From: Nitrospirae bacterium UBA4572
Lineage (GTDB): Bacteria; Nitrospirota; Leptospirillia; Leptospirillales; Leptospirillaceae
Direction of reading: 5' to 3'
Assembly (NCBI GenBank): GCA_002387725.1
Contig: DGKK01000025.1
Location: 10,400 to 73,592, forward strand
Length of the DNA: 63,193 bases
In this document: positions 4,725 through 54,319 of the stretch, piece by piece
Numbering within the stretch: position 1 is the stretch's first letter
How the letters are laid out: each line of letters begins with the position of its first letter
Notes under the pieces: generated by a model
What the model was told of the DNA's origin: nothing
The model's input: only the letters and a program-made list of their open reading frames with translations
Database searches by the model: none
Program-made: the position numbers and the translations under genes

Positions 4725-4750
4725 GGATGGAAATGATTCCAGGACTGATT

Positions 4751-6022: not shown

Positions 6023-6468
6023 CTTTCTGGAACTCCTTCGTCGGCTTTGGGAAGGCGTGTCTCGTGTGGCAGGTTTGGTGCGTCTGCGTTTTTCATCATC
6101 GGAGCCCGATGGTCAGGGTTTTTCAGGCGTTTCGGCCTGGCCGCACCGTTCTCCGGGACGTCAGCATCGCATGTTTCACTTGGGTCGAATCCGCCCCATT
6201 CCAGAGGACGGGGCCTAAGGACGGGAAAATGGTTCGTCCGTCCGCCATCAAATCAGCACCGGTGTCATCCTGAGGGAGGCAACATTGTCAGGTCTTTTCC
6301 AAGAACTTTCCGGTAGGAATGGGTGTGTGGATGGCCGATGAAGGTTCTCTTGGATGGGCGATCGATGTGCGTCCCTTTGCCGGAAGGCTTCATCCGTAAA
6401 GGTTCGTCGGGGGGTCACATTCACGCAACGGGATGCCTAGGACCACCTCAAAGACTGAGACTACAACG

Positions 6469-23099: not shown

Positions 23100-23120
23100 T
23101 TTCGTTACTCCTTCCGTGAA

Positions 23121-23136
23121 TGTTCCACGTGGAACA
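23121..23136. promoter_or_regulatory. parS centromere-like site TGTTCCACGTGGAACA
   Basis: Perfect 16-bp palindrome. It differs from the canonical TGTTTCACGTGAAACA only at one symmetric position pair. Located in the 46-bp rsmG-parA spacer. Confidence 0.75.
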
Positions 23137-23145
23137 TTTTGGAAA

Positions 23146-25586: not shown

Positions 25587-25587
25587 T

Positions 25588-26910: not shown

Positions 26911-26933
26911 GTTAGGAACTCTCGAAGGGAGCC

Positions 26934-28487
26934 TTATTTGGCAGGAATTGTTTTGAAGACGTAGCGCATGAGTACATATTGTTGTCCGATGGTCAGAAGA
27001 TTGTTGACGATCCAGTAGAGGACAAGCCCGGATGGAAAATTCAGGAAAAAGAAGGTCATCACAACAGGAAGGAAGAGCATGATCCGTCGTTGCATCGGGT
27101 CCGGAGTCGAGGGTGTGAGCTTGGTTTGGATCACCATGGTGATACCCATGATGATGGGGAAGATGTAATACGGATCCTTGATGGAGAGATCATGAATCCA
27201 GAGAAGGAAGGGGGCCTGTCTCAATTCGACGGTGTTATTCAGAATGTTATAAAGGGCCACGAATACGGGAATTTGGACAATAACCGGAAGGCATCCACCT
27301 AACGGGTTGATGCGGCGTTCCTTGTACAGCTCCATCATGGCCGCATTGAGTTGGGCCTTGTCGTCCTTGTACTTGGCCTGGAGCTTTTTGATCTCAGGCT
27401 GCAGCTGCTGCATTTGATTCATGGAACGAAAGGACATATAGGCCAAGGGAGAAAAAAGGATCTTGATCAGAAGCGTCACGAAAATGATGGCAAATCCATA
27501 ATTTTGCATATGTGTGTAAAGGGTGGAGAGAAAGACGAAAAGAAATTTGGCCAGGAAGCTGACAAGAGTGATCCGTCCAAAAAGAAACCAGCCGAAATCG
27601 ACAGTATCGAGAAGCCCAGGTTCTGCCGACTTCAGGAGGGAGTATCTTTTCGGCTCACCGGTGAGGGTGAGAGAGGCATGGGCATTGTTGAAAGAAAGAC
27701 GTATAAAGGAGTTGGTCTTGTCCTTGATGATTTCCGTGGAGGCCGGAAAGCCCTTCAGGGAAATATAACCGATAAAGTATTTGGTTTCATTCCCGACCCA
27801 GGTGAGGGAGGTGGGAGGAAAGACTTCGGAAATGTCCTTTTTGAACTCATTCATCTTTCCGTCGGGAGTTCCATAAATGGGACCCTGGAATTCCGTTCCG
27901 ATGAATTGGGTTTCATCGGACATCCCGAAATTCAGTCCGGGAAGAAAGACAAGGTGAAGATGGTCAGGATTGTCCACCGACACAGTGACATGATACCCCT
28001 GGGGGGGCAGCGTGTAGGAGAGTGTCACCGGGTGGTTGTTAAAGGAGTAAATAAGGGAAAGGGTGGACGGGCTAGTGACCGAGAGATTATGGGAGGAAAG
28101 GGGGGCCCCATTGTAGGCCATTCGTACAAGCGTTAGAGGAAGCAGCCCATTCTTGTCATGAACGACAAGTCCTCCCCCCATAAATCCCGGCTTTGAACGA
28201 AGGAGATCGATATTCGATTTCTTGTCGGAGGTGAAGTAGGAAAGGAGTTTCCAACCGATCATCGTTCCGGATGTTTCCGAGAAGGAAAGACGGATGTCTT
28301 TGTTGGAAAGCGAAAGAAGGGAAGACTCCATATCGTTGATCATCGGGACAGAGATCAGGTTGGAGGAAATGATTCCCTTGCCATTCGTCGGAGGCGGAGT
28401 TGCTGACTGGTGGGTAGAGAAATAGTAATAGAGGAGAAAGTTAAAGCCCAGGACGATGGCAATGAGGGGAAGCATTTTCTTTAACAT
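26934..28487 (-). CDS. yidC: Membrane protein insertase YidC
   Basis: 517-aa ORF with an N-terminal TM, a large periplasmic domain and the conserved C-terminal 5-TM core (..INPLGGCLPVIVQIPVFVALY..). Confidence 0.95.
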   Translation of the reverse strand: MLKKMLPLIAIVLGFNFLLYYYFSTHQSATPPPTNGKGIISSNLISVPMINDMESSLLSLSNKDIRLSFSETSGTMIGWKLLSYFTSDKKSNIDLLRSKPGFMGGGLVVHDKNGLLPLTLVRMAYNGAPLSSHNLSVTSPSTLSLIYSFNNHPVTLSYTLPPQGYHVTVSVDNPDHLHLVFLPGLNFGMSDETQFIGTEFQGPIYGTPDGKMNEFKKDISEVFPPTSLTWVGNETKYFIGYISLKGFPASTEIIKDKTNSFIRLSFNNAHASLTLTGEPKRYSLLKSAEPGLLDTVDFGWFLFGRITLVSFLAKFLFVFLSTLYTHMQNYGFAIIFVTLLIKILFSPLAYMSFRSMNQMQQLQPEIKKLQAKYKDDKAQLNAAMMELYKERRINPLGGCLPVIVQIPVFVALYNILNNTVELRQAPFLLWIHDLSIKDPYYIFPIIMGITMVIQTKLTPSTPDPMQRRIMLFLPVVMTFFFLNFPSGLVLYWIVNNLLTIGQQYVLMRYVFKTIPAK

Positions 28488-28522
28488 CTACATGGCACTT
28501 TCTTTATTGTGTGTGAGGAAGG

Positions 28523-28723
28523 TCATGGAAAGTCGATGCCACCGGGATGAAAGGGGTGACAGCGCAGAATCCTGAAGATGGATTTAATCAAGGCTCGATG
28601 AAATGGATATTTGTTGAAGGACAGGCGGGCGTATTCAGAGCAGGAAGGATAAAAACGGCAGGATTGGGGGAGGAAAGGAGAGATATACCTCTGATAGAGA
28701 GAAATCAAACCCTGCATCGTCAT
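28523..28723 (-). CDS. yidD: Membrane protein insertion efficiency factor YidD
   Basis: Start set at ATG 28723 ([32 protein letters not shown]..., 66 aa). ATGA overlap with the rnpA stop. Confidence 0.85.
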
Positions 28724-29043
28724 GCCTTCAGTCGTGAAAGCGTTTTTCGCGCCTGAACCATCTGGTCGAGTAGCTGATCGAAGGACGTTGTCAGCGCGGG
28801 ATTCCGGCCCATGATGACATAATAACCCGGAGGGAAACCGTCGGTTAACCGATAGGCTTCCCTGAGGCGTCTCCGGACGCGGTTTCGGAAAACAGCCTTC
28901 CCGATCTTTTTTCCCACGAGTACGCTGAGACGATAGTCGCTGGAATTCTGACATAGAAGGACAAAGGACGAGGAGACAACCTTTATGCCGGGAGATTCGA
29001 TGATGCGCTGGATTTCACCACGGGTAAGCGAGACTGGCTTCAA
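28720..29043 (-). CDS. rnpA: RNase P protein component
   Basis: 107-aa basic ORF (..[20 protein letters not shown]..) between rpmH and yidD. Confidence 0.85.
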
Positions 29044-38162: not shown

Positions 38163-38447
38163 TCAGGGATGTTTCCCCGTCCAGGATTCGGGACGGAATC
38201 CCTCCTTGGAAAGCTCGAAGGTGTCTTTAAGGTCCGTGATCATGATCATCTTGATGGCGTGGTGTTTGGCAAGGTCATCACAGATTCCCACGCAGATCTC
38301 ACAGCCCTTGCACCGATCAACGGCAACGAAGGCCGTTTTGGCGGCGTTATCGTAGAGGATGGTGTTGGCCTCGGGGCAATACTGGGTGCAGAGGCGACAG
38401 GCAGTTTCACTGCAGATAGCTTGGTCGATATGCGCGACAAGATACAA
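38163..38447 (-). CDS. 2-oxoacid:ferredoxin oxidoreductase, small 2x[4Fe-4S] ferredoxin-like subunit
   Basis: 94-aa ORF with two four-Cys clusters (CSETACRLCTQYCP and CKGCEICVGIC). Last gene of the OFOR cluster. Confidence 0.85.
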   Translation of the reverse strand: MYLVAHIDQAICSETACRLCTQYCPEANTILYDNAAKTAFVAVDRCKGCEICVGICDDLAKHHAIKMIMITDLKDTFELSKEGFRPESWTGKHP

Positions 38448-38468
38448 GGGATTTCTCCTTTAGTTAGA

Positions 38469-39164
38469 TCAGACGGAGGCCTTTTGGCTCTTAGCGGCCC
38501 AGCCGTGATCCTGGGCATATTGGTAGGCGGCGGCAATAACGGCCATGTTGCTCTTCAGAAGCTGCTCTTTTTTGGCAAATTTCTTTTCGATCACATTGTC
38601 GAGAGCGGCCGTGCCTCCGGAGACGACAAATCCCTTTCCGAGAAAGCGTTCACGGACAGACTGTTCGAGGGATTCCATCGACGGGATGCCAAGAATCGAG
38701 GCGATGGCTCCCACCATGGCCATGTTTGTGGCGAGGTCGGTTCCGCCGACTTCACGGGCCATGGTTGTGGCCGGAAGGTAGTGGATCCGTGCCTGACGCT
38801 CCTCAAGTTCGCGAACCTCATCGGGCTGCAGGGGAATCGGGGTGTCGGAGTTGATGAGGACGACACCGTTCTGCTTGAGTCCGGAATAGAACGGCATCGT
38901 ATAGGATTTTCCGTGAGTGATCACCTGAGGATGGAAAATCATGATCACGTTGGGGTAGATGATTTCCCCAATTTCATAAATTCTGTCGATGGCAATGCGA
39001 ACGTAGGATTCAACCGGAGCCATGCGCTTCTCGGAGCCGAAAAAGGGAACAAGGGTGCTTTCCCCGCCATTGATCACCATCCCGTTGCTCAGGATGTGGG
39101 AGGCGGTGACGACTCCCTGGCCTCCGATACCGGCCATACGGATGTTGTAACGCTTGAGTTGCAT
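38469..39164 (-). CDS. 2-oxoacid:ferredoxin oxidoreductase, gamma subunit
   Basis: 231-aa ORF. N-terminus IRMAGIGGQGVVTASHIL is typical of the OFOR gamma domain. Confidence 0.9.
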   Translation of the reverse strand: MQLKRYNIRMAGIGGQGVVTASHILSNGMVINGGESTLVPFFGSEKRMAPVESYVRIAIDRIYEIGEIIYPNVIMIFHPQVITHGKSYTMPFYSGLKQNGVVLINSDTPIPLQPDEVRELEERQARIHYLPATTMAREVGGTDLATNMAMVGAIASILGIPSMESLEQSVRERFLGKGFVVSGGTAALDNVIEKKFAKKEQLLKSNMAVIAAAYQYAQDHGWAAKSQKASV

Positions 39165-39229
39165 GGTGCGATCTCCTTCAATTGGGGGAGGAGAGAACGA
39201 TTGCCGTTTCCCCTCCCGGGTCCTGACTC

Positions 39230-40093
39230 CTACTTCTTGGCTTTCTTGGAGGTATCGATGGATTCAAGGTAGGCCTTGGCTTCATCGGAGATGATTTCCA
39301 TGAAACCGTAACGCTTCGATTCGATCTCCCGGGCATCGTCAAGAACCTTCGGGGTCGGGATGGCGTATTCGATATTGCAGGAGGTGTAGGCCTGAATAAA
39401 GGTGGGACCGACTTCTCGGGCAATCATGACGGCTTTCCTAACCACGGAAGCCACCCGGGTCGGATTGGTGGGGGTCAGACGGGCAATGTAGGCAACGCCT
39501 GATGTCTGGGCCAGACCGATCATGTCCATCTTGTCGAAGAGCTTGCCCTTGGGGGCCATCTTGAGGAGGGCACCGCGCTCGGTCATGCCGCTCTCCTGAC
39601 CTCCGGTATTCCCATAGACTTCGTTGTCGAGCATGATGGTGGTAAAACGTTCCTTGCGGAACCAGGAGTGCATCACGGCGCTGAAACCGATGTCCGCCAG
39701 TCCGCCGTCACCTGCCATCACGACCACGTCCTTGGCCTGATCCTTGAACCGGACTTCAAGGCCGCGCTTGAGGCCGGAGGCCACCGCATTGGTGTCCCCG
39801 TAGTTTCCGTAGATGAAGGGAATCGAAGTCTGGGTCAATGCGAGTCGACCGCATCCGGCCGTTCCGATGAGAATGGTGTGCTCGGGGTTGGGGAGTCCCA
39901 CCATCGTGAGACGGATGAAAAGGGTCATGGCGCAACCGGCGCACATGGGATGCTCCTCGAGGACCTCCTTGAAGGAGCCCATTTCGGAGACCTTTTTCTG
40001 TTTCCCGTAGGGACCGCGCTCCACGAGGTCCACGTATTCCTTGGTCATGTACTTCTCCCAACCGGGAGTGATGGTCATATTCTTAAAGCTCAT
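39230..40093 (-). CDS. 2-oxoacid:ferredoxin oxidoreductase, beta (TPP-binding) subunit
   Basis: 287-aa ORF with Cys ligands (HPMCAGCA, GTAGCG) and TPP motif VVMAGDGGLADIGFS...NEVYGNTGGQ. Confidence 0.92.
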   Translation of the reverse strand: MSFKNMTITPGWEKYMTKEYVDLVERGPYGKQKKVSEMGSFKEVLEEHPMCAGCAMTLFIRLTMVGLPNPEHTILIGTAGCGRLALTQTSIPFIYGNYGDTNAVASGLKRGLEVRFKDQAKDVVVMAGDGGLADIGFSAVMHSWFRKERFTTIMLDNEVYGNTGGQESGMTERGALLKMAPKGKLFDKMDMIGLAQTSGVAYIARLTPTNPTRVASVVRKAVMIAREVGPTFIQAYTSCNIEYAIPTPKVLDDAREIESKRYGFMEIISDEAKAYLESIDTSKKAKK

Positions 40094-40177
40094 TGGTCAG
40101 CTCCATATTCTTGATAAGTCAAAGAAGTTTTCTTTTGACGTCGTGTTGTTCTGATGACCCTGAATGTCTTGACGTGG

Positions 40178-41422
40178 CTAAAAAACAAATTTCTTGTTCG
40201 GGAAGATCGTCTGAAGGATCATCTCCGTGGGCATGGACATACCGCCGTAGACCCGAGGTCCGGCAACGATCTCTGCCTTGGAGTGTCCGTACAGTGCGGT
40301 GACGATTTCACGATGAAGCCATCCCATGTAGTTAAACTCGGGGACGATGATTCTCTTCGCGTGCTTGCAGGCCTCGCGAAGTTCCGGCGTGGGGAAGGGG
40401 CGAATCGAACGGACCTTGATGAGTCCGATCTTGGTGTTGTGTTCCTCTTCCGCCTGACGGACAGCCTCCCGGGACTGGGAGACGGCACTCCCGGAAGCGA
40501 TCAGCATGATTTCTGCATCTGGGTTGACGACCTCGATCAGGCCTCCCATGTATTTGTTGATGTAGCGACGGGCTCTCTCGTTGGCAGCCCATACTTCCTG
40601 CTGCCAGGAGGCATGAACCTGATAGCTGATGAAGTTGCTCTTCTGGATCGGCGCATCGCGGGAAAGACGGGCCGGAGGATTTTCGTTGTCCATTGCCGGA
40701 ACGGCTTCGGCATAGGGATCTCTCGGAGGAAGCTTGATGTCCTTCGAGGGAATGTTGACATATCCGCGGGCATGGGTGACAAAGAATCCGTCCACCGCCA
40801 CCGCCACGGGGAGGGTGACCTCAGGTCGCTCGGAAATGATGAAGGCCTTCATGGTGTAGTCGAAGAAGTCCTGCTGATTCTCTCCGTGGAGGAGGATAAG
40901 ACCGGAATTGAGAAGATAGGCGAGCTCGACATTGTCGGGCTGGATGGCGAGAGGGGCATTGACCACCCGGCACATGATCAGGAGAACTGCGGGAATCCGT
41001 CCACCTGGCCAGGAGGCGATCACTTCCATGCCTCTCATGAGTCCGGGACCGGCGGTGGCGGTCATGGACCGGGCGCCTGCCCGGGAAGAGCCGGCAATGG
41101 CGGACATCACGCCGATTTCTTCTTCTCCACGGAAATATTCCTTGACATATCCTTCGGCCCAAAGGGAGCCCACCTGCTGCATGGTCTCGCTCTGGGGAGT
41201 GATCGGGTAGGAGATGGCGACGTCGACGTTGGAGCGGCGAATGGCCTCCTTGGCGGCTTCGGACCCTGTAATGAACGCTCTTTCCCGAGGGGCTTCGAAG
41301 AACATGTATTCCGGGGTAACGACCTTCTGTCGATCGCCCGCGGAGAGTTCGCTCTCGGGGGTTCCCTTGACTTCAGGGGCTTTGCCTGCCTGGACGTCTT
41401 TGACTCCTGCCGAATCGGACAT
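40178..41422 (-). CDS. 2-oxoacid:ferredoxin oxidoreductase, alpha subunit
   Basis: 414-aa ORF with the YPITP motif (VAISYPITPQSE) and an OFOR domain I/II pattern. Confidence 0.92.
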   Translation of the reverse strand: MSDSAGVKDVQAGKAPEVKGTPESELSAGDRQKVVTPEYMFFEAPRERAFITGSEAAKEAIRRSNVDVAISYPITPQSETMQQVGSLWAEGYVKEYFRGEEEIGVMSAIAGSSRAGARSMTATAGPGLMRGMEVIASWPGGRIPAVLLIMCRVVNAPLAIQPDNVELAYLLNSGLILLHGENQQDFFDYTMKAFIISERPEVTLPVAVAVDGFFVTHARGYVNIPSKDIKLPPRDPYAEAVPAMDNENPPARLSRDAPIQKSNFISYQVHASWQQEVWAANERARRYINKYMGGLIEVVNPDAEIMLIASGSAVSQSREAVRQAEEEHNTKIGLIKVRSIRPFPTPELREACKHAKRIIVPEFNYMGWLHREIVTALYGHSKAEIVAGPRVYGGMSMPTEMILQTIFPNKKFVF

Positions 41423-41748
41423 TCATGACTCCTTAATATGGAAGATGGTCAGTGAAGAGAGGGTGAAAACGCTAAAGCTTGATTGAATCGGGCCAAGGCT
41501 CCGAACCAGGGTCCAGGGGGACGCCAGAGTTGTCGTGGCGTGTCGTGAACCAAGGCATGCCGGGAATCCGTGTCTATTTCCTGGGCTAAGGAGATCGGCA
41601 TATGAAGAAAGCCATCAACCCGGGATCTGCCTGTCCAATTTGTCCCGGAGAGGATCCCGCATCTTCAATCAGCCTGCGACAACAATATTATCCAGCGTTC
41701 GAATACACTATCACCAGTTCTCAAATCAAGTCAAACCTGGGGAAGTCT

Positions 41749-41777
41749 CCTCTTGATCCCTTGAAGGGATCAAGAGG
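41749..41777 (-). terminator. Perfect 12-bp-stem hairpin (CCTCTTGATCCC-TTGAA-GGGATCAAGAGG), possible terminator or processing/operator site
   Basis: Seen directly, ~70 nt downstream of the 203-aa gene stop. There is no clean U-tract on the minus-strand transcript, so the terminator assignment is tentative. Confidence 0.35.
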
Positions 41778-41845
41778 CCGGATTCCTGCGAAAGTTCTTG
41801 TTTCGTTTCTTTTTTTCTCTCTCCTAGCAGTCAATCCAGGAAGAC

Positions 41846-42457
41846 TCATTCGGCATGTTCGTCGAGTCCTGCGGCGAGATCATGGCGAAACTCCTCTGGA
41901 ATGTGCAGGGCCTTTGTCTCGTCCCACTTCCAGTCCGGACGCTTTTCGGGGTATTTGACGAGATTCCGGGAATGGGCCACCCCTTCCGGTGTGGCTCCCC
42001 AGGGAGTGAAGGCGGAATCGGAGAGAAGGGCCGAGATCTCGCGGGTCAGACTTTGTAAAAGGTCGAGCTCCCGGACATCGAGATGAATGTGGCCCGTCGG
42101 GGCTAGGCCATGGTCATCAAGAAGAAGGATGGTCCCGCAGGAATCCCGGATGCTCTCGAGGTGCACAAGGATGGAATCCAGCCGGCCCTTGGGAATCCCG
42201 GAGAGAAGAGTGATTCCCGATGAGAAGACAAGGGTGTCCGCCGGCTTGAAGTCGGAAACGTGCGCCAGATCGATGGCGGGAATCGTCTCCTCGAAAAAAC
42301 GCATCAGGCGACGGCGCTCCGCATCGGTATCATTCCAACCCCAACGGGTCGACGATCCGATCATGAGCGTAGGGCGCTCCGAGGTCAGAATCAATCGGGC
42401 AAGGGATCGCACATCATGAGAAGCGGCGTGTGTGGGTGTCATTGTGGTCTCTCGCAT
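41846..42457 (-). CDS. 203-aa soluble protein, candidate fifth (ForD/PorD-like) subunit of a five-subunit OFOR
   Basis: ORF with no motif I can assign. Its size (~22 kDa) and position upstream of alpha-beta-gamma-ferredoxin match my recollection of the Hydrogenobacter forDABGE layout. The start may be ATG 42457 or 42442. Confidence 0.55.
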   Translation of the reverse strand: MRETTMTPTHAASHDVRSLARLILTSERPTLMIGSSTRWGWNDTDAERRRLMRFFEETIPAIDLAHVSDFKPADTLVFSSGITLLSGIPKGRLDSILVHLESIRDSCGTILLLDDHGLAPTGHIHLDVRELDLLQSLTREISALLSDSAFTPWGATPEGVAHSRNLVKYPEKRPDWKWDETKALHIPEEFRHDLAAGLDEHAE

Positions 42458-42589: not shown

Positions 42590-43081
42590 TCAGGAGTGGT
42601 GAGGAGGAGACCCAAAGGCCCGGAGCACTCCCTCGACAATGGCCTCCGGAGGAGGGGGACAGCCGTGAACTGTGACATCGGGTGGAAGAATTGAGGAAAG
42701 TCCATCGTGGGTCGCGTAGCTTCCCCGGAACACCCCTCCGGAGATGGCGCAGTCCCCAACGGCCAGGACCCGTTTCGGAGCGGGCATCGCCTGGTGGGTC
42801 GTTTCAAGGGCTTCCTTCATATGGCAGCTCACCGGTCCGGTAACCAGAAGAATGTCGGCGTGGCGCGGAGAGGCAACAAATGAGAATCCAAGGCTGGAGA
42901 GGGAGGTGACGGGATTTTCCAGGGCCCAGAGTTCGAGCTCGCATCCATTGCAGGAGCCGGCATCCACATGGCGGATGGAGGCGCTATGGAGAAACGGAGG
43001 TCGTCCTGTCTCTTCCTGAGTCCTGGTGGGAGATTCGGTCAGTGTGCCTGTCTTCAAAATCTTCCAGAGAAGTTTCCACAT
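42590..43081 (-). CDS. NuoB/HycG/HyfI-like small subunit (one [4Fe-4S] site retained)
   Basis: 163-aa ORF with DAGSCNGCELE, VGDCAISGG and VHGCPPPP, the four-Cys pattern of the proximal/N2-type cluster. Confidence 0.9.
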   Translation of the reverse strand: MWKLLWKILKTGTLTESPTRTQEETGRPPFLHSASIRHVDAGSCNGCELELWALENPVTSLSSLGFSFVASPRHADILLVTGPVSCHMKEALETTHQAMPAPKRVLAVGDCAISGGVFRGSYATHDGLSSILPPDVTVHGCPPPPEAIVEGVLRAFGSPPHHS

Positions 43082-43090
43082 GGGAGTCTC

Positions 43091-44647
43091 CTAAAGGTCC
43101 GAGGCACTGTAGCTCGGATTGAATGACTTGTTGATCAGAGGGAAGTCGGCCACGAGATTCCCGGGGACAGAGGCTTCAAGCGCATGCCACAGAAGGGGCG
43201 AACCATCCGCGATATGGGCATCTGCGAGAATCTTGCCCGGGAGGATCCGGACCCATCCCAGAACCTCTCCGCGGAACCCTTCCACAATGCCGGCTCCTTC
43301 CCGGGGGGCCGGAGGGTCCGGGATCGTCGCGCAGATGTCGGGTCCGGGAAAGCTTGTCAGGAGGGCATGAGTCAGTCGCAGGGATTCAAATATTTCGAAA
43401 AAACGGATCCGGACCCGAGAGGCCACGTCTCCGATATGGTCGAGCGCCAGGGCGGGAGCAAAGCGGTGCACAGGGTCTTCCCGATGGTCGACGCGAAGAT
43501 CCCATCCCTGACCACTGGCGCGGCCAGCCACCCCTCCGATCCCCAGTCTGCCGGCAACCTCCGGAGACAGAATGCCCGTATTCTGGAATCGATCCTGAAG
43601 CCCGCCGTGATCGGCGTAAATCCTTTCAAGAAGGGAGACCTCGGCCTGAAGTCGTTCATTCTCCAGGAGAAGGGTTTCGATCATGGCTCCGGAGAGGCCT
43701 GTTGAGACACCTCCGGGAACAACCGAATCAAAGAGGAGTCGGTGGCCGAAAAGGGACAGGTTGATGCGATGCATGGCTTCGCGGAGGGGATGAAAGAGGG
43801 AGAGAGCGACAGCGAGCCCCGCATCATTTCCGAGAGCCCCCAGGTCGGCCAGGTGATTCGCGATTCTCTCCCTCTCCAGCAGAATGGCCCGGACAAACCG
43901 GACCCCCTCCGAGATCTCGATATCCAGGGCCTCTTCGACGGCCTTTGAAAAGGCCAGCGAGGTGGCCACTGCCGAATCTCCCGAAATCCGTGAGGCCAAA
44001 CGGGCGGCTTCCGGGAGATTCCGTCCCCGAAAAAGGCGCGCGATTCCCTTGTGGGTATAGCCCATCCGGGTCTCCAGACGGAGGACTTTTTCTCCGACAA
44101 CGGAAAAGCGGAAATGACCCGGCTCGATGATGCCGGCGTGAACGGGCCCGACGGGAATCTCATGGACGCCGTCCCCGCGGACCCTTACGAAAGGATAGTC
44201 CATACCTTGAGCCAGGCGTGTCAGGGGAGAAGGGGTGTGTGAGAGGGGGGGATGGCTCCAGAGGCCGTGATCAATCCAGGGACGAAGGTCCGCCAACCCG
44301 TCCGGGATGAGCCCAAAGAGATCGTGGATCGTACGCTCAAAGCGGGCAGCAGGAGGGAAGATTGAGGAGAGGGAGGGAAAAGAGACGGCGTCCTTTGGCA
44401 GGGAAAGGGACAGAAGAACAAGACCTTCCCTGAGCAGAATCGCTGCCCGGATGGCCGGGAGGGACTCGGACCAGAGCGTCAGAAGCCTGGCTCCATTGCT
44501 GGACAGAAGGCGCGCCTGTGCCAGGTAACGGTCGGGTGACTCGGTGACGAGAAAGGTATGGGGAATGCCGCCATGAAGACGATCAAAGCCGGTCTCGGGA
44601 GAAAAAAAAGGGGATGAGTCACCCTCCATGGGGACCTCCAAGGACAA
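43091..44647 (-). CDS. Fused NuoC-NuoD / HycE-HyfG-like subunit lacking all Ni-Fe ligand cysteines
   Basis: 518-aa ORF with a NuoC-like FERTIHDLFGL and a HycE-like core (VGPVHAGIIEPGHFRF). The ligand motifs read RISGDSAVAT and NPSYSASDL. There is a single Cys in the whole protein. Confidence 0.9.
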   Translation of the reverse strand: MSLEVPMEGDSSPFFSPETGFDRLHGGIPHTFLVTESPDRYLAQARLLSSNGARLLTLWSESLPAIRAAILLREGLVLLSLSLPKDAVSFPSLSSIFPPAARFERTIHDLFGLIPDGLADLRPWIDHGLWSHPPLSHTPSPLTRLAQGMDYPFVRVRGDGVHEIPVGPVHAGIIEPGHFRFSVVGEKVLRLETRMGYTHKGIARLFRGRNLPEAARLASRISGDSAVATSLAFSKAVEEALDIEISEGVRFVRAILLERERIANHLADLGALGNDAGLAVALSLFHPLREAMHRINLSLFGHRLLFDSVVPGGVSTGLSGAMIETLLLENERLQAEVSLLERIYADHGGLQDRFQNTGILSPEVAGRLGIGGVAGRASGQGWDLRVDHREDPVHRFAPALALDHIGDVASRVRIRFFEIFESLRLTHALLTSFPGPDICATIPDPPAPREGAGIVEGFRGEVLGWVRILPGKILADAHIADGSPLLWHALEASVPGNLVADFPLINKSFNPSYSASDL

Positions 44648-46100
44648 GAAGGGCCTTCTGATAAACCGAGTAGAGAGTGGCCGGAAAGACCGTTCCCAGG
44701 ATCAGCGCCAGTCCGAGATGGATCCAGATAGGGAAAAACGTGAGCTTGGGCAGTGGGGGGAGGGGTTTCGTCGTCATGGAGGGGCCCCCTTCACTGATCT
44801 CGAGAATGCGGAAGATCAGTACTCCGAAGGTGACGAAGAGGGCGAGAAGGAGAAAGGGAACGGCAAAGGGAATTCTTTTGACGGCCTCGGTGATGATCAG
44901 AAGCTCGCTGGCAAAGAGGGCGAAGGGAGGGAGGCCCGTGATGGCGAATCCTCCCGCCAGGAGTGCCCGGGCGAGTCCGGGCGTCCTGAGGGCCACCTCG
45001 CGGATGGACGGAATCTTCTGTGACCCGGAGGTCTGGACAATGTGTCCCACGGCAAAGAAGATCGCCGATTTGACGAGGCTGTGAGTGGTCATATGGAGTA
45101 GTCCCGCAAAGGTGGCCAGCGGGCCACCGATGCCGAAGGCCAGAGTGGCGAGCCCCATGTGCTCGATCGAGGAGTAGGCGAAAAGGCGTTTGATGTCCTG
45201 CCTCTTCCACATCGAGATCGAGGCGAGGAGGACGGAGGCCAGTCCGAATCCCATCAGGAGATTCGAGGGCATGGAGCTGTGGATCGCTCCGTCTGCCAGG
45301 GACTTGACTCTGAGGATGGCATAGAGGGCGACGTTCAGGAGGAGGCCCGAAAGGACCGCCGAGATGGGTGTGGGACCTTCCGCATGGGCATCCGGAAGCC
45401 AGTTGTGAAGGGGGACAAGCCCGACCTTGGTTCCGTATCCCACCATAAAAAAGACGAAGGCCAGCGACATCACGGTGGGTTCGAGCTGCGACTTGACGGT
45501 CTCGAGGTGAGTGAGAAGAAGCGCCGTTCCTCCGGGTCCCAGGGTTTTTTCGGAGGCGAAATAAAGGAGGATCGTTCCGAAAAGAGCCTGGGCAATTCCG
45601 ACGCCGCAAAGGATGAAGTATTTCCAGGAGGCCTTGATGGCGGCGGGGGTTCGGGTCCACCCTACGAGAAGGACCGTCGCCAGGGTCGCTCCTTCGAGCG
45701 CCACCCACAAAAGACCCAGGTTGTTGCTTGCCAGAACGACAATCATCGTCAGGACGAAAATCTGGTAAAGCGCGAGATAGAGGCGGGTCCTTTCCGGTGT
45801 CAGTCTGCCATGAGAAGCCTCGATCGTCATGTACCGGAGAGAGAAAAAGGAGGTCGTCGCCGCGACTCCTCCGGTGATGACAAGAAAAAGGGAGGAGAAG
45901 GTGTCGGCGAAGAGATTCTCGTCGAGGGCGACCAGGGGGCCATGAAGCGAGACCTCTTCACCGAGGATGAGGGTGAGGAAAAAGGTCAGGAGCGAGAAGG
46001 CGATATTCAGGAGCGGGGCGATTTTCCTGTGGCCCCAGAGGCCAAGAACGATGGCTCCGGTGATCGGTGAAAGTATCATGAGGACGAGAATCACAGTCAC
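44619..46100 (-). CDS. Antiporter-like membrane subunit (HyfF / NuoM-N family)
   Basis: 493-aa polytopic ORF with the signature LHNWLPDAHAEGPTPISAVLSGLLLNVALYAILR. Confidence 0.88.
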   Translation of the reverse strand: MTVILVLMILSPITGAIVLGLWGHRKIAPLLNIAFSLLTFFLTLILGEEVSLHGPLVALDENLFADTFSSLFLVITGGVAATTSFFSLRYMTIEASHGRLTPERTRLYLALYQIFVLTMIVVLASNNLGLLWVALEGATLATVLLVGWTRTPAAIKASWKYFILCGVGIAQALFGTILLYFASEKTLGPGGTALLLTHLETVKSQLEPTVMSLAFVFFMVGYGTKVGLVPLHNWLPDAHAEGPTPISAVLSGLLLNVALYAILRVKSLADGAIHSSMPSNLLMGFGLASVLLASISMWKRQDIKRLFAYSSIEHMGLATLAFGIGGPLATFAGLLHMTTHSLVKSAIFFAVGHIVQTSGSQKIPSIREVALRTPGLARALLAGGFAITGLPPFALFASELLIITEAVKRIPFAVPFLLLALFVTFGVLIFRILEISEGGPSMTTKPLPPLPKLTFFPIWIHLGLALILGTVFPATLYSVYQKALLVLGGPHGG

Positions 46101-46771
46101 TCCGTCGGGGTATTGTCCATGTGTTTCAGGTCAAAGCTTTCGAATGTTTCCCGGATCTGGAAGAAGAAGATCCCGAAGACGAAGGTGCCCACAAGAACAT
46201 CGAAGGCCACGCCAAGCTCCACGACCATGGGCATCCCATAGGTGGCATTGATCGCGGAGAAAAAGAGGGCGTTTTCCATTCCCAGAAATCCCAACACCTG
46301 CGTGACGGCCTTTCGTCGGGTGATCATCATGAGGAAGGAGAGGAGCAGGGCGGCCAGACCTACTCCGATCAACCCGCGGGAGACCGTATTGGCCATCTCG
46401 GAGATGGGGGCGGCCAGGGCAAAGGAAAAAACCACGACAAAGAGTCCGACCACCATGGTGGTCGGAACGTTAAGAAGAACCTCCACCTCTCCCCGGATGT
46501 GCAGTCGCTCGAGAAGGCGAAAGAGAAGGATCGGCAGCAGAAGAACCTTGAAGGCCAGGGTGAAGAGGGCGGAGAAGAAAAGATGAGGCTCTCCTGCGGC
46601 AAGGGCCACAGAGAGCGTGCTGAGTGTCAGGAGGATTCCCTGCAGGGCAAAGATTCTGACAAGGGAGGCCATTCGCCTCATGGAGAGCATGGCGAACGAG
46701 GAAAGGAGAAGGGCGCTTCCGAGGAAGCCGACAAGCGGGCTCGTCGGGGGAGAGACAAAAGAGGCAGCCAT
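46097..46771 (-). CDS. HyfE-like small membrane subunit
   Basis: Start at ATG 46771 (MAASFVSPP..., 224 aa). Multi-TM with a GFLGMENALFF block resembling HyfE. Confidence 0.78.
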   Translation of the reverse strand: MAASFVSPPTSPLVGFLGSALLLSSFAMLSMRRMASLVRIFALQGILLTLSTLSVALAAGEPHLFFSALFTLAFKVLLLPILLFRLLERLHIRGEVEVLLNVPTTMVVGLFVVVFSFALAAPISEMANTVSRGLIGVGLAALLLSFLMMITRRKAVTQVLGFLGMENALFFSAINATYGMPMVVELGVAFDVLVGTFVFGIFFFQIRETFESFDLKHMDNTPTE

Positions 46772-46772
46772 G

Positions 46773-47741
46773 TTATCCCTCAAGGACAAAGTGAAGGAGA
46801 AAACCCAGCGTTGACAGAAGATAGGCCAATGCCGTGAATTCCGGGACCCTGAAGATCCTGAGCTTCGCAAAGAGTGATTCGATCAGGGCCAGAAGAGCTC
46901 CGAGAATGAAAAGTTTTCCCAAAAGAAGGATCCCCCCTTCGAGAAGGCCCGAAAGAGCGAAAGTCCGCGGAATCCCCGCGGGGGCAAAAAAGTCGATTCC
47001 CAGAAGGAGGTAGAGAAGGAGCTTTTGCATCGATCCCCATTCCATCAGGGCCAGAAGGGGGCCGGAATATTCGAGAAGCATCGCCTCGTGGATCATCGTC
47101 AGCTCCAGGTGCGTCGATGGGTTGTCGATGGGGAGCCGGGCATTTTCTCCGAGGAAGACAAGGATGAAGGCCATGGCGGCAATCAGGAGGCTGGGATGAA
47201 AGGGGAGAGGGCCCTTCGAGAAAGATGTCAGGATCGAAGGGATCGACGTGGATCCCGACCAGAGCGAGACGGTGAAGAGGATCATGAGGGTGGCAGGCTC
47301 GGTCAGAAAGGCCACCATCATCTCCCTGCGCCCTCCCATGTCTCCGAAGGGGGTTCCGAGATCCATGGCGGCCATTGCCATGGAAAACCGGGCCAAAGAG
47401 AAGAGGCCGACAAGCGTGACGGCATCGGCGACGGGAGCCAGAGGAGGGGATGTTCCCAAAAAGGGGACAAGAAGGGCCGCCACCGCCATGATGGAGAAAA
47501 AGAGAGGCGGGACAGCGAGGAAAAGAGGCGAATGCCCCTCCGGAAGAATCATCTCCTTGCGAAAGAGGCGCACAAGATTCCTCCAGGGTTGCAAAATCCC
47601 AGCAGGGGATCGGTTCTGGAGAATGGCCCGGACGGTACCGATCCACCCATATAAAAGGGGGGCCAGGAAAAGGACAAAGGCCATCTGAAGAAGGGAGATC
47701 GCGATGGCTAAGGAGCCGTGAAAGGAAGAAGCTAGTGCCAT
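46773..47741 (-). CDS. NuoH/HycD/HyfC-like membrane subunit
   Basis: 322-aa polytopic ORF with a NuoH-family pattern (..RLPIDNPSTHLELTMIHEAMLLEYSG..). Confidence 0.88.
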   Translation of the reverse strand: MALASSFHGSLAIAISLLQMAFVLFLAPLLYGWIGTVRAILQNRSPAGILQPWRNLVRLFRKEMILPEGHSPLFLAVPPLFFSIMAVAALLVPFLGTSPPLAPVADAVTLVGLFSLARFSMAMAAMDLGTPFGDMGGRREMMVAFLTEPATLMILFTVSLWSGSTSIPSILTSFSKGPLPFHPSLLIAAMAFILVFLGENARLPIDNPSTHLELTMIHEAMLLEYSGPLLALMEWGSMQKLLLYLLLGIDFFAPAGIPRTFALSGLLEGGILLLGKLFILGALLALIESLFAKLRIFRVPEFTALAYLLSTLGFLLHFVLEG

Positions 47742-49783
47742 CGGAGCACCGACAGAAGAAGGATGAGGGTGGTGAAGCTGTAGATCAGGTAGATTGAAAT
47801 TCGCCCCGAGCGAACACGTTCCGCCCCTTCCGCAATGGCGACAAAAAGACGGAACAGCGGGCGATAGAGGAGCGGCCAGTGAGGATCCTCGACGGAGAGG
47901 AGAAAGACAGGATCGGGATCATCCGGAGAGGGGAGATGTCTCTTCATGGAGAAAAAGACTGGAAAGAAATGGCGAATCGGCTGGGCAAAGGATTCGGCTG
48001 TGGCCTGGGAGCGTCTGTAAGAATCGCGATAGCCGCATCCCCAGGGGATTGAGAGGCGACGCTTTTTTCCTTCTGTCCCCAGAACAAGCCAGAGGACGGG
48101 CAGTGTCAGGATGACGAGGAGAAGGAGAAGAAAAAGAGGGGATGTGGAGGGGCCGGCCGGGGGAAGGGGGAGAAGCCAGGCCCATCCGTAGGCTCCGGAG
48201 GGAGAGGGCAGGGTCGTGGAGGTCAGGGGAGAGACGGCCTTGAGGATTTCACCGAGGACGAGGCTGGGAAAGAGCCCCAGGAAGAGAGAGCCCATGGCCA
48301 GGCCTCCCATGCCCAATCGTTCAAAGAGGGAACATTCGTGAGCCGCCCTGGCCCCGTCGGAACGGGGCTGGCCAAGATATCCCACCCCGAAGAACTTGAG
48401 AAATCCCATGGCGGCGAGGGCCGATGCCAACACAAGTATGGCCGCGCCAAAAAGAACGGCACTGCGTTGAATGGTTCCGAGGAGGTCGCGGGCCTGCAGG
48501 GTGGACTGGAGAAGAAGCCATTCCGAGACGAAGCCGTTCGTCGGAGGAATCCCTGAAATGGAAAGGACCGCGATGAGGACCAAGGCTCCGGAGACAGGCA
48601 TTTTTTTGAAGAGCCCTCCCATCCGGTTGAGATTCGTCTCCCCCGTCGCATGAATCATGGTTCCCGCCCCAAGGAAGAGAAGTGCCTTGAAGAAGGCATG
48701 GTTGAGGGCGTGGTAGAGAGCGGCACAGAGTGCCAGGGTTCCTGCCAGGGGGTGTCCTGTCTTCAGATAGAGAATGCCGAGCCCTGTTCCCAAGAGAATC
48801 AGGCCGATGTTTTCAATGGAAGAGTAGGCGAGAAGGGTCTTGGTGTCAGACTGGAGGATGGCGTGAAGAATCCCGAACAGGGCCATGAAGGCTCCGGTGA
48901 CGAGCAGGAGAATGCCAAATGAGGGGGCGAGCTGGGGAAGTCCCACGAGGTCGAAGAGGGCGCGGATCAGTCCGTAGATGGCCGCCTTGAGCATGACCCC
49001 GCTCAACAGGGCCGAGGCCGGAGCCGGGGCGGCCGGATGCGCCAGCGGGAGCCAGACGTGAAGAGGGACAACGCCGGCCTTGGCTCCGAAGCCCAATAGA
49101 AAAAGGAGGGAAACCAGAAGGGCTTCTCCTGAGGACAGATGGTTCATCTTCAGGGCCTCGAAAGAGAAGGAGGCCATCGTCAGCGAGCCGGAGGGAAGCT
49201 CCCGGGTGGCCAGGAGCGCAAAGGCGGTCACGATCAGCATGCTTCCTCCATGCGCCAGGAGGAGCGTGAGATAGCTGGCGCGACGAACCCCTTCGGTGTT
49301 TTCTCCGGAAAGGATCAGGAAAAACGAGGCGACGGCCATGATCTCCCAGAAAAGCATGAAGGAGTAGACATCAGCGGCGAGGAAGACTCCCCCCGTAAAA
49401 AAGAGAAAAACCGTGGTCTTGGCCAGAAACTGGGCCTTCTTTTCAGGGGCCTCATTCTTTGTGTATCCGGCCGAATAGAGCAGAACTCCCGCCGAGGCTC
49501 CTCCCAGAAGAAGAAGAAAAAAGCCCGAGAGAGGATCGAGGCGAAGATGAAATGAGAGTCCGGGAATTCCTCCGGGTAGGATCAGTCGGGTGTCCGAGGT
49601 TGTGACAAGGGGGAGAAGCCCCGAAAGGGCAATGGCCAGACTCTCCAGGGAGAGGAGGGTAAAGAAAAAGGAGGCCAGAGAGGGGCGGCGCCCGACAACT
49701 CCGGCACCGGCCAGTCCTGTGAAAAGAAGGGTGAGAAGTGCGGCGAGAGTCAGGAAAATCGGAGAGGGAAAGAGCGTCATCAC
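47732..49783 (-). CDS. NuoL/HycC/HyfB-like antiporter-type membrane subunit
   Basis: 683-aa polytopic ORF. LHVWLPLAHPAAPAPASALLSGVMLKAAIYGLIR, plus a C-terminal PWGCGY block as in HycC/HyfB. Confidence 0.9.
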   Translation of the reverse strand: MMTLFPSPIFLTLAALLTLLFTGLAGAGVVGRRPSLASFFFTLLSLESLAIALSGLLPLVTTSDTRLILPGGIPGLSFHLRLDPLSGFFLLLLGGASAGVLLYSAGYTKNEAPEKKAQFLAKTTVFLFFTGGVFLAADVYSFMLFWEIMAVASFFLILSGENTEGVRRASYLTLLLAHGGSMLIVTAFALLATRELPSGSLTMASFSFEALKMNHLSSGEALLVSLLFLLGFGAKAGVVPLHVWLPLAHPAAPAPASALLSGVMLKAAIYGLIRALFDLVGLPQLAPSFGILLLVTGAFMALFGILHAILQSDTKTLLAYSSIENIGLILLGTGLGILYLKTGHPLAGTLALCAALYHALNHAFFKALLFLGAGTMIHATGETNLNRMGGLFKKMPVSGALVLIAVLSISGIPPTNGFVSEWLLLQSTLQARDLLGTIQRSAVLFGAAILVLASALAAMGFLKFFGVGYLGQPRSDGARAAHECSLFERLGMGGLAMGSLFLGLFPSLVLGEILKAVSPLTSTTLPSPSGAYGWAWLLPLPPAGPSTSPLFLLLLLVILTLPVLWLVLGTEGKKRRLSIPWGCGYRDSYRRSQATAESFAQPIRHFFPVFFSMKRHLPSPDDPDPVFLLSVEDPHWPLLYRPLFRLFVAIAEGAERVRSGRISIYLIYSFTTLILLLSVLRWH

Positions 49784-49979: not shown

Positions 49980-50300
49980 ATGCGAGAAGATCCGCGGGAC
50001 ATACAACAAAACGAGGTGGCTCGGGAGATCGAGCGGAGCCAGGGCCCCATTCCCTGGTGGATGGTCATCCTGATCGTCATCGTCTATGCGACGGCGATCA
50101 TTCTTTCTCTTCCCATCTTGGGGAACCGGACCGGACAAAACATCAATACCTTCTTCTCCCCGGACCACAAACGGGGGACCTTCGACTTCGGAACCGTGGG
50201 AGGCGGGGCCTATCTTGCAGGGGGATTTTTTGTCATCTACTACGTGTTCATGATCCGGCCCCGCAGGATGCAAAAGAAGAAAAGCCAGAAGCTTCCCTGA
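49980..50300 (+). CDS. Small two-TM membrane protein (unknown function)
   Basis: 106-aa ORF with a strong SD (GGAGGGGG), two hydrophobic helices and a basic tail. Its stop is 2 nt before the M50 protease ATG. Confidence 0.55.
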   Translation: MREDPRDIQQNEVAREIERSQGPIPWWMVILIVIVYATAIILSLPILGNRTGQNINTFFSPDHKRGTFDFGTVGGGAYLAGGFFVIYYVFMIRPRRMQKKKSQKLP

Positions 50301-52756: not shown

Positions 52757-54319
52757 TTGGCCTATTTTATTGACCGAAAAAATCTTCAGAAAAAATCGCT
52801 GGACCGAAAAATCCCCACCACCATGGCGACCCAGCATCCCGACAATGCCGCCCCTCCCTACTGGAAGGGAAATCAGGATCCCTTCATCAGTACCCTCGAT
52901 GAGATCGAGGAGTGCTACCGCAGCTACATCGATATCGGCTGTCAGGAATACATGTGGGACTGGGAAGGGAAGTATGTGGACGAAGGGGTGGTGGAAAAGC
53001 TCTTTTCCACCTACTACGACTACTTCAAGGACAACCAGATCGGGAAGGATATCTTTCTGACCTTCCGGCTTCCCAATATCTGGTATGAGAAGGAGTACCG
53101 GATTGCCCGGGCCTATATCGGGATCCTGACCTTTGAGGACCTGGCCCGAGATCTCCATCTCAAAACCCCCCCCGTCTTCGAGGTGATCCTGCCCATGACG
53201 GACGAAGGGCAGAAGATGCTCTACCTTCAGCAGACCTTCCGGAAGATCGCAAAACTCAAGAATCAGGTCTTCGACGAGGAGGGAACGGTCAAGGACTCCT
53301 CCTATCTTCAGGTCATTCCCCTGGTTGAGGGAGTCTCGGAGCTGACCGCCTCGAGAAAGATCCTCCATGACTATGTGGACCTCCACGATCGGGAGTACGG
53401 CACCAAGCCGCTCTATCTCCGTCCCTTCATTGCCCGCTCCGATCCGGCGTTAAATGCCGGGATCGTGCCGGCGACCATCGCCGCCAAGGTGGCCCTTTCA
53501 GAATATTACAAGTTCGAAGAGGAAACCGGCATTCCGGTCTTTCCGATCATGGGTGTGGGGTCGCTTCCCTTCCGGGGAGGGCTCTCTCCCTGGAACGTCC
53601 CCCATTTCATCGAGGAATATCCCGGTGTCCGGACGGTCACGGTGCAGTCGGCCTTCCGGTACGACTATCCCCAGGAAGATGTCCGGGAGGCCATTACCCT
53701 CCTCAACCGCTCCCTTCCGGGCGCCGTCCCTCTGGCCTATACCCCCGAGGAGGTCAAGGCCGGGGAGAGGCTCGCGGAGATCTTTTCCGACCACTACCGA
53801 AAAACGATCGAGGAGGTGGCCGACGTCATCAACCGCGTCTCCTCCCGCATCCCTCCCCGTCGGGAGAGGAAGCTGCACATCGGTCTTTTTGGCTACTCCC
53901 GGGGAATTGGCCAGAAGCAGCTCCCCCGCGCCATCGGCTTTACGGCCTCCCTTTATTCCCTGGGGATTCCTCCCGAGCTGATCGGAACCGGCCGCGGAAT
54001 CGCCCAAGCCATTCGGGAAGGGTTGGGCGACCACCTCTCGCTCTTCTACCGGCGACTCAAGGACGACATGCAGGATGCCGGAAACTTCCTGAACAAGGAG
54101 AATCTGGAATTCCTGGCCGCCGAGGACCAGGCATGGAGAACCGTCAAGGAGGACATCGACCTCATTGAGGACTTCTTCAAGATCACCTTGGGTCCCGTCA
54201 CGATCGAACACTATCTTCACCGGAATTTCGTGTCGAGCATCTATTTCCTCATGCAGGAGGAAAAAGACTTCTCGGAATACCTCCTCAATGCGGCGACACT
54301 CCGCCGCTCTCTCGGGTAA
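52757..54319 (+). CDS. Archaeal-type phosphoenolpyruvate carboxylase (PepcA family)
   Basis: 520-aa ORF (TTG start). N-terminal KIPTTMATQHPDNA matches the short archaeal-type PEPC signature (..TQHPDN..), and the ~520-aa length fits that family rather than the ~900-aa bacterial Ppc. Confidence 0.82.
   Translation: MAYFIDRKNLQKKSLDRKIPTTMATQHPDNAAPPYWKGNQDPFISTLDEIEECYRSYIDIGCQEYMWDWEGKYVDEGVVEKLFSTYYDYFKDNQIGKDIFLTFRLPNIWYEKEYRIARAYIGILTFEDLARDLHLKTPPVFEVILPMTDEGQKMLYLQQTFRKIAKLKNQVFDEEGTVKDSSYLQVIPLVEGVSELTASRKILHDYVDLHDREYGTKPLYLRPFIARSDPALNAGIVPATIAAKVALSEYYKFEEETGIPVFPIMGVGSLPFRGGLSPWNVPHFIEEYPGVRTVTVQSAFRYDYPQEDVREAITLLNRSLPGAVPLAYTPEEVKAGERLAEIFSDHYRKTIEEVADVINRVSSRIPPRRERKLHIGLFGYSRGIGQKQLPRAIGFTASLYSLGIPPELIGTGRGIAQAIREGLGDHLSLFYRRLKDDMQDAGNFLNKENLEFLAAEDQAWRTVKEDIDLIEDFFKITLGPVTIEHYLHRNFVSSIYFLMQEEKDFSEYLLNAATLRRSLG

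Follow-up and report, generated by a model that had tools for sequence, protein, structure and literature searches.

The DNA stretch analysed here (the window) comprises 63,193 nucleotides (nt) from Nitrospirae bacterium UBA4572 (GenBank assembly GCA_002387725.1, contig DGKK01000025.1, positions 10,400 to 73,592 of the forward strand), and the element in question is an open reading frame (ORF) on its minus strand whose product resembles the large subunit of a [NiFe] hydrogenase and carries none of the four cysteines that ligate the Ni-Fe centre. The locus to which this ORF belongs is a six-subunit energy-converting hydrogenase-related (Ehr) complex, EhrABCDLS, which is a class already described and not a discovery. 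Taken jointly, the identification of the ORF as EhrL of EhrABCDLS and the working of this complex as a redox-coupled ion translocator are judged probable, and we infer that it is unable either to produce or to cleave H2. The large subunit and its two altered ligand motifs lie as follows.

43091 to 44647, minus strand: EhrL, a large subunit of the HycE type, fused at its N-terminus to a NuoC-like domain and lacking Ni-Fe ligands (alignment, Pfam, Foldseek)
43961 to 43990, minus strand: L1-equivalent RISGDSAVAT, residues 220-229, opposite RVCGICGFAH of HycE (phmmer)
43094 to 43120, minus strand: L2-equivalent NPSYSASDL at the extreme C-terminus, of which NPSYSASD (residues 510-517) lies opposite DPCYSCTD of HycE (phmmer)

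The frame is uninterrupted and encodes 518 amino acids (aa) from a TTG start; the true start is probably the ATG at nt 44629, six codons 3' of the TTG, from which the orthologues are called, giving a protein of 512 aa in which every residue number is lower by 6. A first-pass annotation of the window had taken this protein to be HycE/HyfG-like, with a NuoC-like N-terminal domain and a VGPVHAGIIEPGHFRF core, and both features are present. When all PDB chains were searched with phmmer, the top match was Escherichia coli HycE (7z0s_E, E=4e-45, query residues 86-517), and the solved relatives rank in the order HycE (157 bits), MbhL (103 bits) and Nqo4 (76 bits). Pfam assigns PF00329 (NuoC-like) with 35 bits and PF00346 (NuoD-like) with 69 bits, and the NiFeSe_Hases family reaches 20.1 bits, under its cut-off of 25.8 bits.

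Relative to HycE, both Cys of the L1 segment are replaced by Ser and its terminal His by Thr, and the L2 segment has Ser and Ala for Cys and Asn for Asp. HycE C241, C244, C531 and C534 (native numbering) thereby correspond to EhrL S222, S225, S512 and A515. The loss of both motifs had been claimed at the nucleotide positions listed above, which are correct, and the reservation made at the time, that the motifs might have been mis-registered and four Cys might align to L1 and L2, is removed by this alignment. The single Cys of the protein is, as had been read, the one in ..PGPDICATIP.. (C439 in the 518-aa form). With all four ligands replaced, the earlier conclusion that a Ni-Fe centre cannot be assembled stands for a centre with canonical ligands. 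The chain ends one residue past the L2-equivalent Asp, whereas that of HycE runs ~33 residues further. EhrL has the homology and fold of a group 4 [NiFe] large subunit but neither L1 (RxCGxCxxxH) nor L2 (DPCxxCxx[HR]). Neither hyp nor hycI turned up among the scanned ORFs, a minority of those in the 63-kb window, which is itself only part of a genome.

EhrL is encoded together with five partner subunits, all on the same strand.

47732 to 49783, minus strand: EhrA, a HyfB/NuoL-like antiporter-type membrane subunit of 683 aa (PF00361, 1e-48)
46773 to 47741, minus strand: EhrB, a HycD/NuoH-like membrane subunit of 322 aa (PF00146, 3e-30)
46097 to 46771, minus strand: EhrC, a HyfE-like membrane subunit (NCBIfam 'hydrogenase 4 membrane subunit', 2e-20)
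44619 to 46100, minus strand: EhrD, a HyfF/NuoM/N-like antiporter-type subunit of 493 aa (NCBIfam 'hydrogenase 4 subunit F')
42590 to 43081, minus strand: EhrS, a HycG/NuoB/MbhJ-like small subunit of 163 aa (PF01058, 2e-28)

The two antiporter-type subunits retain their charged relay residues: E147, K235, K366 and E421 of EhrA are 100% conserved in 62 family members, as are E136, K225, K344 and E399 of EhrD in 74, so that the Glu of transmembrane helix (TM) 5, the Lys of TM7 and the Glu of TM12 are 100% conserved in both. EhrD scores 630 bits against the NCBIfam model 'hydrogenase 4 subunit F', over the cut-off of 543 bits, and EhrA 661 bits against 'hydrogenase 4 subunit B', slightly below the cut-off of 667 bits. 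EhrC likely starts at M34 of the 257-aa maximal ORF, which gives 224 aa; its orthologues are called at 224-225 aa and begin directly after EhrB. EhrB finds its top PDB match in HycD of formate hydrogenlyase (FHL; 7z0s_D, 1e-36, 130 bits), with NuoH-type chains at ~33 bits. Its TM5-6 loop (residues 195-230, ~47085-47160, minus strand) reads AENARiPvDNPaTHLELTMiHEAMxLEYSgRH, is family-specific and is fully conserved; compared with PFDLAEAEQEL---QEGPLSEYSG of HycD, two of the three glutamates are gone and a 3-residue insertion with two conserved His is present. Like the antiporter-type pair, EhrB has nevertheless retained the charged residues conserved in the family. In EhrS, four Cys (C44, C47, C111 and C141) line up with the proximal [4Fe-4S] motifs found in MbhJ and HycG; their conservation across 74 members is 97-100%, so the small subunit has the ligands of its cluster, a feature whose standing as an Ehr-defining trait in the literature is uncertain.

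Out of at least 598 species genomes, 80 loci were taken to compare the surroundings of the module; these loci belong to Nitrospirota, Beta-, Gamma- and Alphaproteobacteria, and Acidobacteria. The order EhrA-B-C-D-L-S is kept in ~70 of them, and all-against-all clustering of the ORFs revealed no conserved partner gene beyond the six across the 80 loci, the flanks holding only sporadic regulators, methionyl-tRNA synthetase and ABC ATPases. No formate dehydrogenase occurs among the conserved neighbour clusters inspected across these loci, and the operon itself encodes neither a formate dehydrogenase nor a maturation protease. A CxxCxxCxxxC ferredoxin motif is absent from every frame of the operon, which therefore has no equivalent of HycF/NuoI or HycB. 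Rfam and tRNA scans gave nothing relevant at the locus. Directly upstream of ehrA, two Leptospirillum-related contigs carry a small gene for an HTH_3 (XRE-type) regulator (L083, 4490-4840; L087, 4376-4720), and similar small helix-turn-helix ORFs are found near the module in several alphaproteobacterial loci; the lineage of the window has instead a divergent 106-aa ORF at 49980-50300 (plus strand) with no Pfam match.

The first-pass statement that such proteins are called Ehr proves right. The class is defined as group-4-related, without the NiFe-binding CxxC motifs and of unknown function (PMC6349859; PMC10284858; PMC4378227; PMC12342949), and the concept is credited, in the citations of PMC4378227, to Coppi (2005) and Marreiros et al. 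(2013). At the locus, the Cys-less large subunit is clustered with NuoL/HyfB-, NuoH/HycD-, HyfE-, NuoN/HyfF- and NuoB/HycG-like genes, as the class requires, and the subunit names found match the list given for the Ehr of Geobacter (PMC7894505). In Sulfobacillus, six syntenic genes lacking the L1 and L2 motifs have been described with the remark that their 'function remains unknown' (PMC4378227); Cys-less Ehr complexes have also been published for Margulisbacteria and relatives (PMC6349859) and for ammonia-oxidising archaea, and the Ehr of comammox Nitrospira has been placed 'close to group 4f' (PMC10284858). The complex is reported in about half of all Nitrospirales genomes, and its function is still described as unknown in the 2025 literature. 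The window locus shows no essential difference from the described complexes of Geobacter sulfurreducens (GSU0739-45), Sulfobacillus, Nitrospira/Nitrospirales, Methylacidiphilum and Margulisbacteria; what sets it apart are very few Cys, small deviations in the pocket and an adjoining five-subunit pyruvate:ferredoxin oxidoreductase (POR), which is not general.

Among characterised systems, E. coli FHL and hydrogenase-4 (HycE/HyfG with HycCDFG and HyfBCEFGI) provide the closest solved relative of EhrL and EhrB, and EhrS is best matched by MbhJ, with HycG close behind (2e-27). Ehr shares with FHL/hydrogenase-4 the fused NuoC-like domain, the IEPGH motif and a Hyf-like membrane arm. However, HycE has four Cys and a C-terminal tail that is cleaved, whereas EhrL has Ser/Ser/Ser/Ala and is tailless, and the HycB/HycF (HyfA/HyfH) ferredoxin subunits and FdhF of FHL have no place in the Ehr operon. 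Complex I (NuoCD/Nqo4 with NuoB/H/L/M/N) resembles Ehr in module architecture, in the lack of a Ni-Fe site, in an N2-type cluster and in the equivalent of Asp139; unlike complex I, Ehr lacks the NADH-input module, NuoI, Tyr87 and His38, and the complex I subunits score far below HycE and HycD. A precedent for a hydrogenase-derived complex that has no H2 chemistry and is still a redox-driven ion pump is the sulfane-sulfur-reducing MBS/Mbx of Pyrococcus (6u8y). The top PDB match of EhrD is its MbsH subunit (1e-35), and MbsL is distant from EhrL (46 bits). MBS has many more subunits than Ehr, a NuoI-like one included.

Cys-less large subunits form a large family. A search of a set of 5.8 billion proteins returned at least 8000 matches to EhrL; the best 120 of these lack Cys at 3/4 ligand positions, three of the 120 having a single L1 Cys, and have in common R[VI]SGD[ST]TVA[YF] as the L1 equivalent and SFNLSYSGHDL-stop as the L2 equivalent at the C-terminal end; the conserved cores of the two are R[VI]SGDS and NxSYSGxDL. 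The residues of these replacement motifs are invariant or nearly so in an alignment of 66 homologues. When one genome per species was scanned, at least 598 species genomes were found to encode an EhrL relative, the hosts including Nitrospirota, many Burkholderiales, Gallionella, Thiobacillus, Acidithiobacillus, Rhodopseudomonas, Bradyrhizobium, Mesorhizobium, Azospirillum and Acidobacteria. HMMER, run exhaustively against the representatives of 50%-identity clusters, found 741 proteins at E<=1e-30, of which 112 near-full-length top representatives were aligned with the query. In these 113 sequences, the four ligand columns hold no Cys in 88, one in six, three in two and all four in 17, so that, among the closest 50%-identity clusters, proteins with no ligand Cys are more numerous than those with four. 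Together with the conserved replacement motifs, the 88 sequences without a ligand Cys indicate an old, widespread and selected loss of the ligands.

The four-Cys relatives, 33-37% identical to EhrL, keep RxCGxC and terminate without a tail in ...CY[AS]C.DR (ELCY[AS]C.DR). In length, in their fused N-terminal domain, in the IEPGHFRF core and in ending straight after L2, they are otherwise like EhrL. They are probably [NiFe] hydrogenases of the group 4f type, a designation taken from the literature. A neighbour-joining tree places them in a single clade beside the Cys-less clades; this tree is rough and midpoint-rooted, and does not tell an ancestral from a derived Cys-less state. Partial ligand sets (CSAG, CSSG, CCCD, CCCA and CSSA) occur among the representatives P0135, P0136, P0138, P0186, P0238 and P0277, with P0238 (CSSA) placed inside the four-Cys clade, and Cys loss has therefore been stepwise or repeated. 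The total number of Cys in EhrL is 1-5 in the Leptospirillum/Nitrospirota clade and mostly 7-11 in the proteobacterial homologues, and the operon in the window is Cys-poor overall (EhrB 0, EhrC 1, EhrD 1, EhrA 3). This low Cys content may be an adaptation to an oxidising, metal-rich acid habitat.

EhrL is real and under purifying selection, neither a sequence error nor a pseudogene. The exact 512-aa protein is public as EES53322.1 (UniRef100_C6HVM5) of Leptospirillum ferrodiazotrophum, this species or a nearly identical strain being the probable source of the window, and it occurs identically on 17 independent contigs, within a 90% cluster of 57 members; the frameshift or sequencing error that had been named beforehand as a possible refutation is not borne out. 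The ratio of nonsynonymous to synonymous substitution rates (dN/dS) was recalculated with relatives at 90% and 94% protein identity, as dS is saturated, and the ratio unusable, for relatives at or below 78% identity. Compared with the syntenic relative at 94% protein identity, EhrL has a dN/dS of 0.12 (dS 0.26), and with that at 90% a dN/dS of 0.09 (dS 0.61), dS being unsaturated in both cases; the remaining genes of the operon give similar values against the same two relatives. Of 184 positions conserved in at least 90% of 106 more distant homologues, EhrL agrees with the family at 166. It departs at the other 18, G515A in the pocket among them, and its departures from the family consensus within the pocket are T226A, Y229T, L511P, G515A and H516S.

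An AlphaFold2 model of EhrL, built from 66 homologues (predicted TM-score 0.85; mean predicted local distance difference test, pLDDT, 79.6), has HycE as its best Foldseek match in the PDB (7z0s_E, TM-score 0.81, E=6e-26, 24% identity), followed by E. coli NuoCD. No Ehr structure is present among the PDB entries released up to April 2026, HycE at 24% identity being the nearest. The pocket had been described beforehand as remodelled into something that is neither the Ni-Fe site of hydrogenases nor the quinone site of complex I, and residue by residue this description holds. The quinone headgroup in complex I is bound by Tyr87 and His38 (Thermus thermophilus numbering). In an ungapped phmmer alignment with Nqo4 (2fug_4), these correspond to G223 and I174 of EhrL, both columns being invariant in the family. 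Asp139, the partner of His38, is kept as D275, which is family-invariant and stands where HycE has Phe, as read from a pairwise alignment only. The hydrogenase-type IEPGH motif with Glu175 is likewise invariant in the family. The EhrL pocket, for all its tight conservation, is thus no Ni-Fe site and no canonical quinone site either, and Ehr complexes come out as intermediate between hydrogenases and complex I in their sequence features.

Directly downstream of ehrS, and outside Ehr, lies the POR cluster.

38163 to 42442, minus strand: five-subunit POR cluster porD-A-B-G-E (Pfam)
41846 to 42442, minus strand: porD (weak PF02552)
40178 to 41422, minus strand: porA
39230 to 40093, minus strand: porB
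38469 to 39164, minus strand: porG
38163 to 38447, minus strand: porE, a 94-aa 4Fe-4S protein (Fer4 families)

Syntenic contigs carry the Pfam families POR_N, TPP_enzyme_C, POR and Fer4. The 198/203-aa ORF that follows EhrS was considered as an accessory subunit of Ehr and rejected, being clade-restricted and fitting a POR delta subunit. This gene, porD, had no significant family match at first; PF02552 (CO_dh) is matched weakly (E ~5e-4 to 2e-3) by 10 of 10 orthologues, and one member of its cluster bears the name 'carbon monoxide dehydrogenase beta subunit family protein'. PF02552 is the delta-subunit family of the Hydrogenobacter-type five-subunit 2-oxoglutarate:ferredoxin oxidoreductase (OGOR) and POR (PMC2607301; PMC10052474), and by this family match porD looks like the delta subunit of such a POR. 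The adjacency of Ehr and POR is syntenic in four relatives whose EhrL is 62-78% identical, and weakly suggests a link of Ehr to the ferredoxin pool.

The reading of Ehr as an ion translocator is preferred because the cluster, the arm with two pumps and the pocket are kept and neither an input module nor a conserved partner is found. With low confidence, we propose a single-cluster, redox-coupled ion translocator that trades electrons with a soluble low-potential carrier. Ehr would thus still act as a redox-coupled ion translocator: the carrier, most plausibly ferredoxin, would dock directly on an exposed EhrS/EhrL surface and trade electrons singly with the lone cluster of EhrS, and the pocket (Ser-Gly-Asp-Ser, Ser-Tyr-Ser-Gly-His-Asp, and Glu175/His178/Asp275) would couple changes in the redox or protonation state of the cluster to the EhrB loop and the two proton-pumping subunits. 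A soluble and ubiquitous partner is proposed because the 80 loci have no flanking gene in common. The second redox partner may be a quinone or some other donor or acceptor that can be reached from the membrane. In an autotroph that is aerobic, uses the reductive tricarboxylic acid (rTCA) cycle and is also a diazotroph, reduction of ferredoxin driven by the proton-motive force (pmf) would be the useful direction. It is conceivable, though decidedly improbable, that Ehr is the missing enzyme by which the pmf drives the reduction of ferredoxin, with quinol or a different membrane donor as the electron source, in aerobes needing low-potential electrons, a suggestion that draws only on the lineage-restricted POR adjacency and on the cluster and pump residues that have been kept. 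The demand for such electrons would come from POR/OGOR of the rTCA cycle in Leptospirillum and Nitrospira and from nitrogenase in many proteobacterial hosts, and the conserved pocket near the [4Fe-4S] cluster would then be a new coupling site standing in for the Ni-Fe centre as well as for the quinone site.

Several observations weigh against the translocator reading. Amino-acid change in the Ehr genes is 5-10 times faster than in the adjoining genes for POR and phosphoenolpyruvate (PEP) carboxylase: against the same syntenic relatives, dN is 0.06-0.22 for the Ehr genes (42590-49783) and 0.003-0.02 for POR (38469-41422) and PEP carboxylase (52757-54319), and at one locus (L081) EhrL is 78% identical and PorB 99%. 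Such fast evolution would suit a function that is accessory or needed only under certain conditions. In the model, pLDDT falls below 50 at residues 146-194 and 491-512 (512-aa form), which are the segments that form the pocket; the lowest values (30-45) fall on the most conserved stretch of EhrL, VRVxGDGVHEIPVGPVHAGIIEPGHFRF... (44048-44194, minus strand), and on the L2-equivalent tail. As these segments touch the small subunit in relatives, the low values likely reflect segments that fold against it, although a mobile loop could give the same picture. The equivalents of Tyr87 and His38 are missing, which leaves a standard quinone site without support. Adjacency to POR is absent from another Leptospirillum (L083), from L087 and from every proteobacterial locus, and the hint at ferredoxin is therefore weak. 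All Ehr subunits of Geobacter are more abundant on formate (PMC7894505), which points to a different partner there. The electron donor and acceptor of Ehr given above are guesses, and literature searches found no experimental or structural characterisation of any Ehr complex.

The alternative that fares best, though unlikely, is a redox-independent cation/proton antiporter of the Mrp type, in which the HycE/HycG-like part would be a cap serving assembly or redox sensing without net electron turnover. Mrp antiporters have the same antiporter-like subunits, the operon has no electron-input module and the 80 loci no conserved partner gene, and within the clade the membrane subunits are the best conserved, EhrC and EhrD ranking above EhrL and EhrS. 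A passive cap, however, would not be expected to keep its cluster Cys at 97-100%, as EhrS does, nor to have the former active-site pocket among its most conserved parts, as EhrL has. It is very doubtful that Ehr is a complex-I-like ferredoxin:quinone oxidoreductase, comparable to the cyanobacterial NDH-1 or Fpo-like enzymes, with its quinone cavity at the EhrL/EhrS/EhrB interface. Glycine and isoleucine in place of Tyr87 and His38 argue against it, as do an EhrB that is far nearer HycD (130 bits) than NuoH (33 bits) and the hydrogenase-type IEPGH kept in place of the complex I loop, even though the hosts are mostly aerobic, quinone-containing bacteria, the N2-like cluster is kept, and D275, which matches Asp139 and is replaced by Phe in HycE, does not vary in Ehr.

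The notion of a decaying relic, that is, a former hydrogenase on its way to a pseudogene, can draw on a dN 5-10 times that of the adjacent POR and PEP carboxylase genes and on the changes at 18 of 184 conserved positions, including G515A in the pocket. It is effectively refuted by a dN/dS of 0.09-0.12 with unsaturated dS, by a frame that is intact in all relatives, by Cys-less motifs conserved across phyla (88 of 113 aligned sequences) and by the retention of the six-gene module. Finally, that the protein is still a hydrogenase with a non-canonical metal site, or that the Cys loss is an error of sequencing or assembly, is scarcely credible despite the retained fold, proximal cluster and proton-gate-like Glu175 in IEPGH, given that the four ligands are absent from a sequence found identically on 17 contigs in a cluster of 57, that Ser, Ala and Gly are unable to ligate Ni-Fe, that there is no C-terminal maturation tail, and that H2 did not induce Ehr expression in Nitrospira moscoviensis (PMC12342949).

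Elsewhere in the window, parB, parA, mnmG (gidA), mnmE (trmE), yidC and yidD stand in a row at 21470-28954 (minus strand), and the GC skew turns from negative to strongly positive at ~22 kb; this region looks like an origin-proximal segment of the chromosome. A 529-aa ORF at 4727-6316 (plus strand) has no Pfam match and a GC content at third codon positions of 0.58, below that of its neighbours.

Ehr is widespread, being encoded in at least 598 species genomes, and it is under selection; the present locus provides a weak, testable tie to the ferredoxin pool and no decisive clue, and does not make the Ehr problem newly tractable. The useful outcome is the correction of annotation. The first-pass warning that an automated hydrogenase label would be wrong proved apt, as EES53322.1 is named 'putative hydrogenase-3 subunit (HycE)' and EhrD passes the cut-off for 'hydrogenase 4 subunit F'. 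Homologues likewise bear names such as 'Ni,Fe-hydrogenase III large subunit' and 'hydrogenase large subunit', Ehr genes are routinely entered under hydrogenase-4 or formate hydrogenlyase, and the hyfB/hyfC/hyfF entries in one genome announcement for A. ferrooxidans are an example of such mis-annotation. Since public records name a hydrogenase, metabolic reconstructions can wrongly infer H2 evolution, and this concerns Leptospirillum, Acidithiobacillus, Nitrospira and many Proteobacteria.

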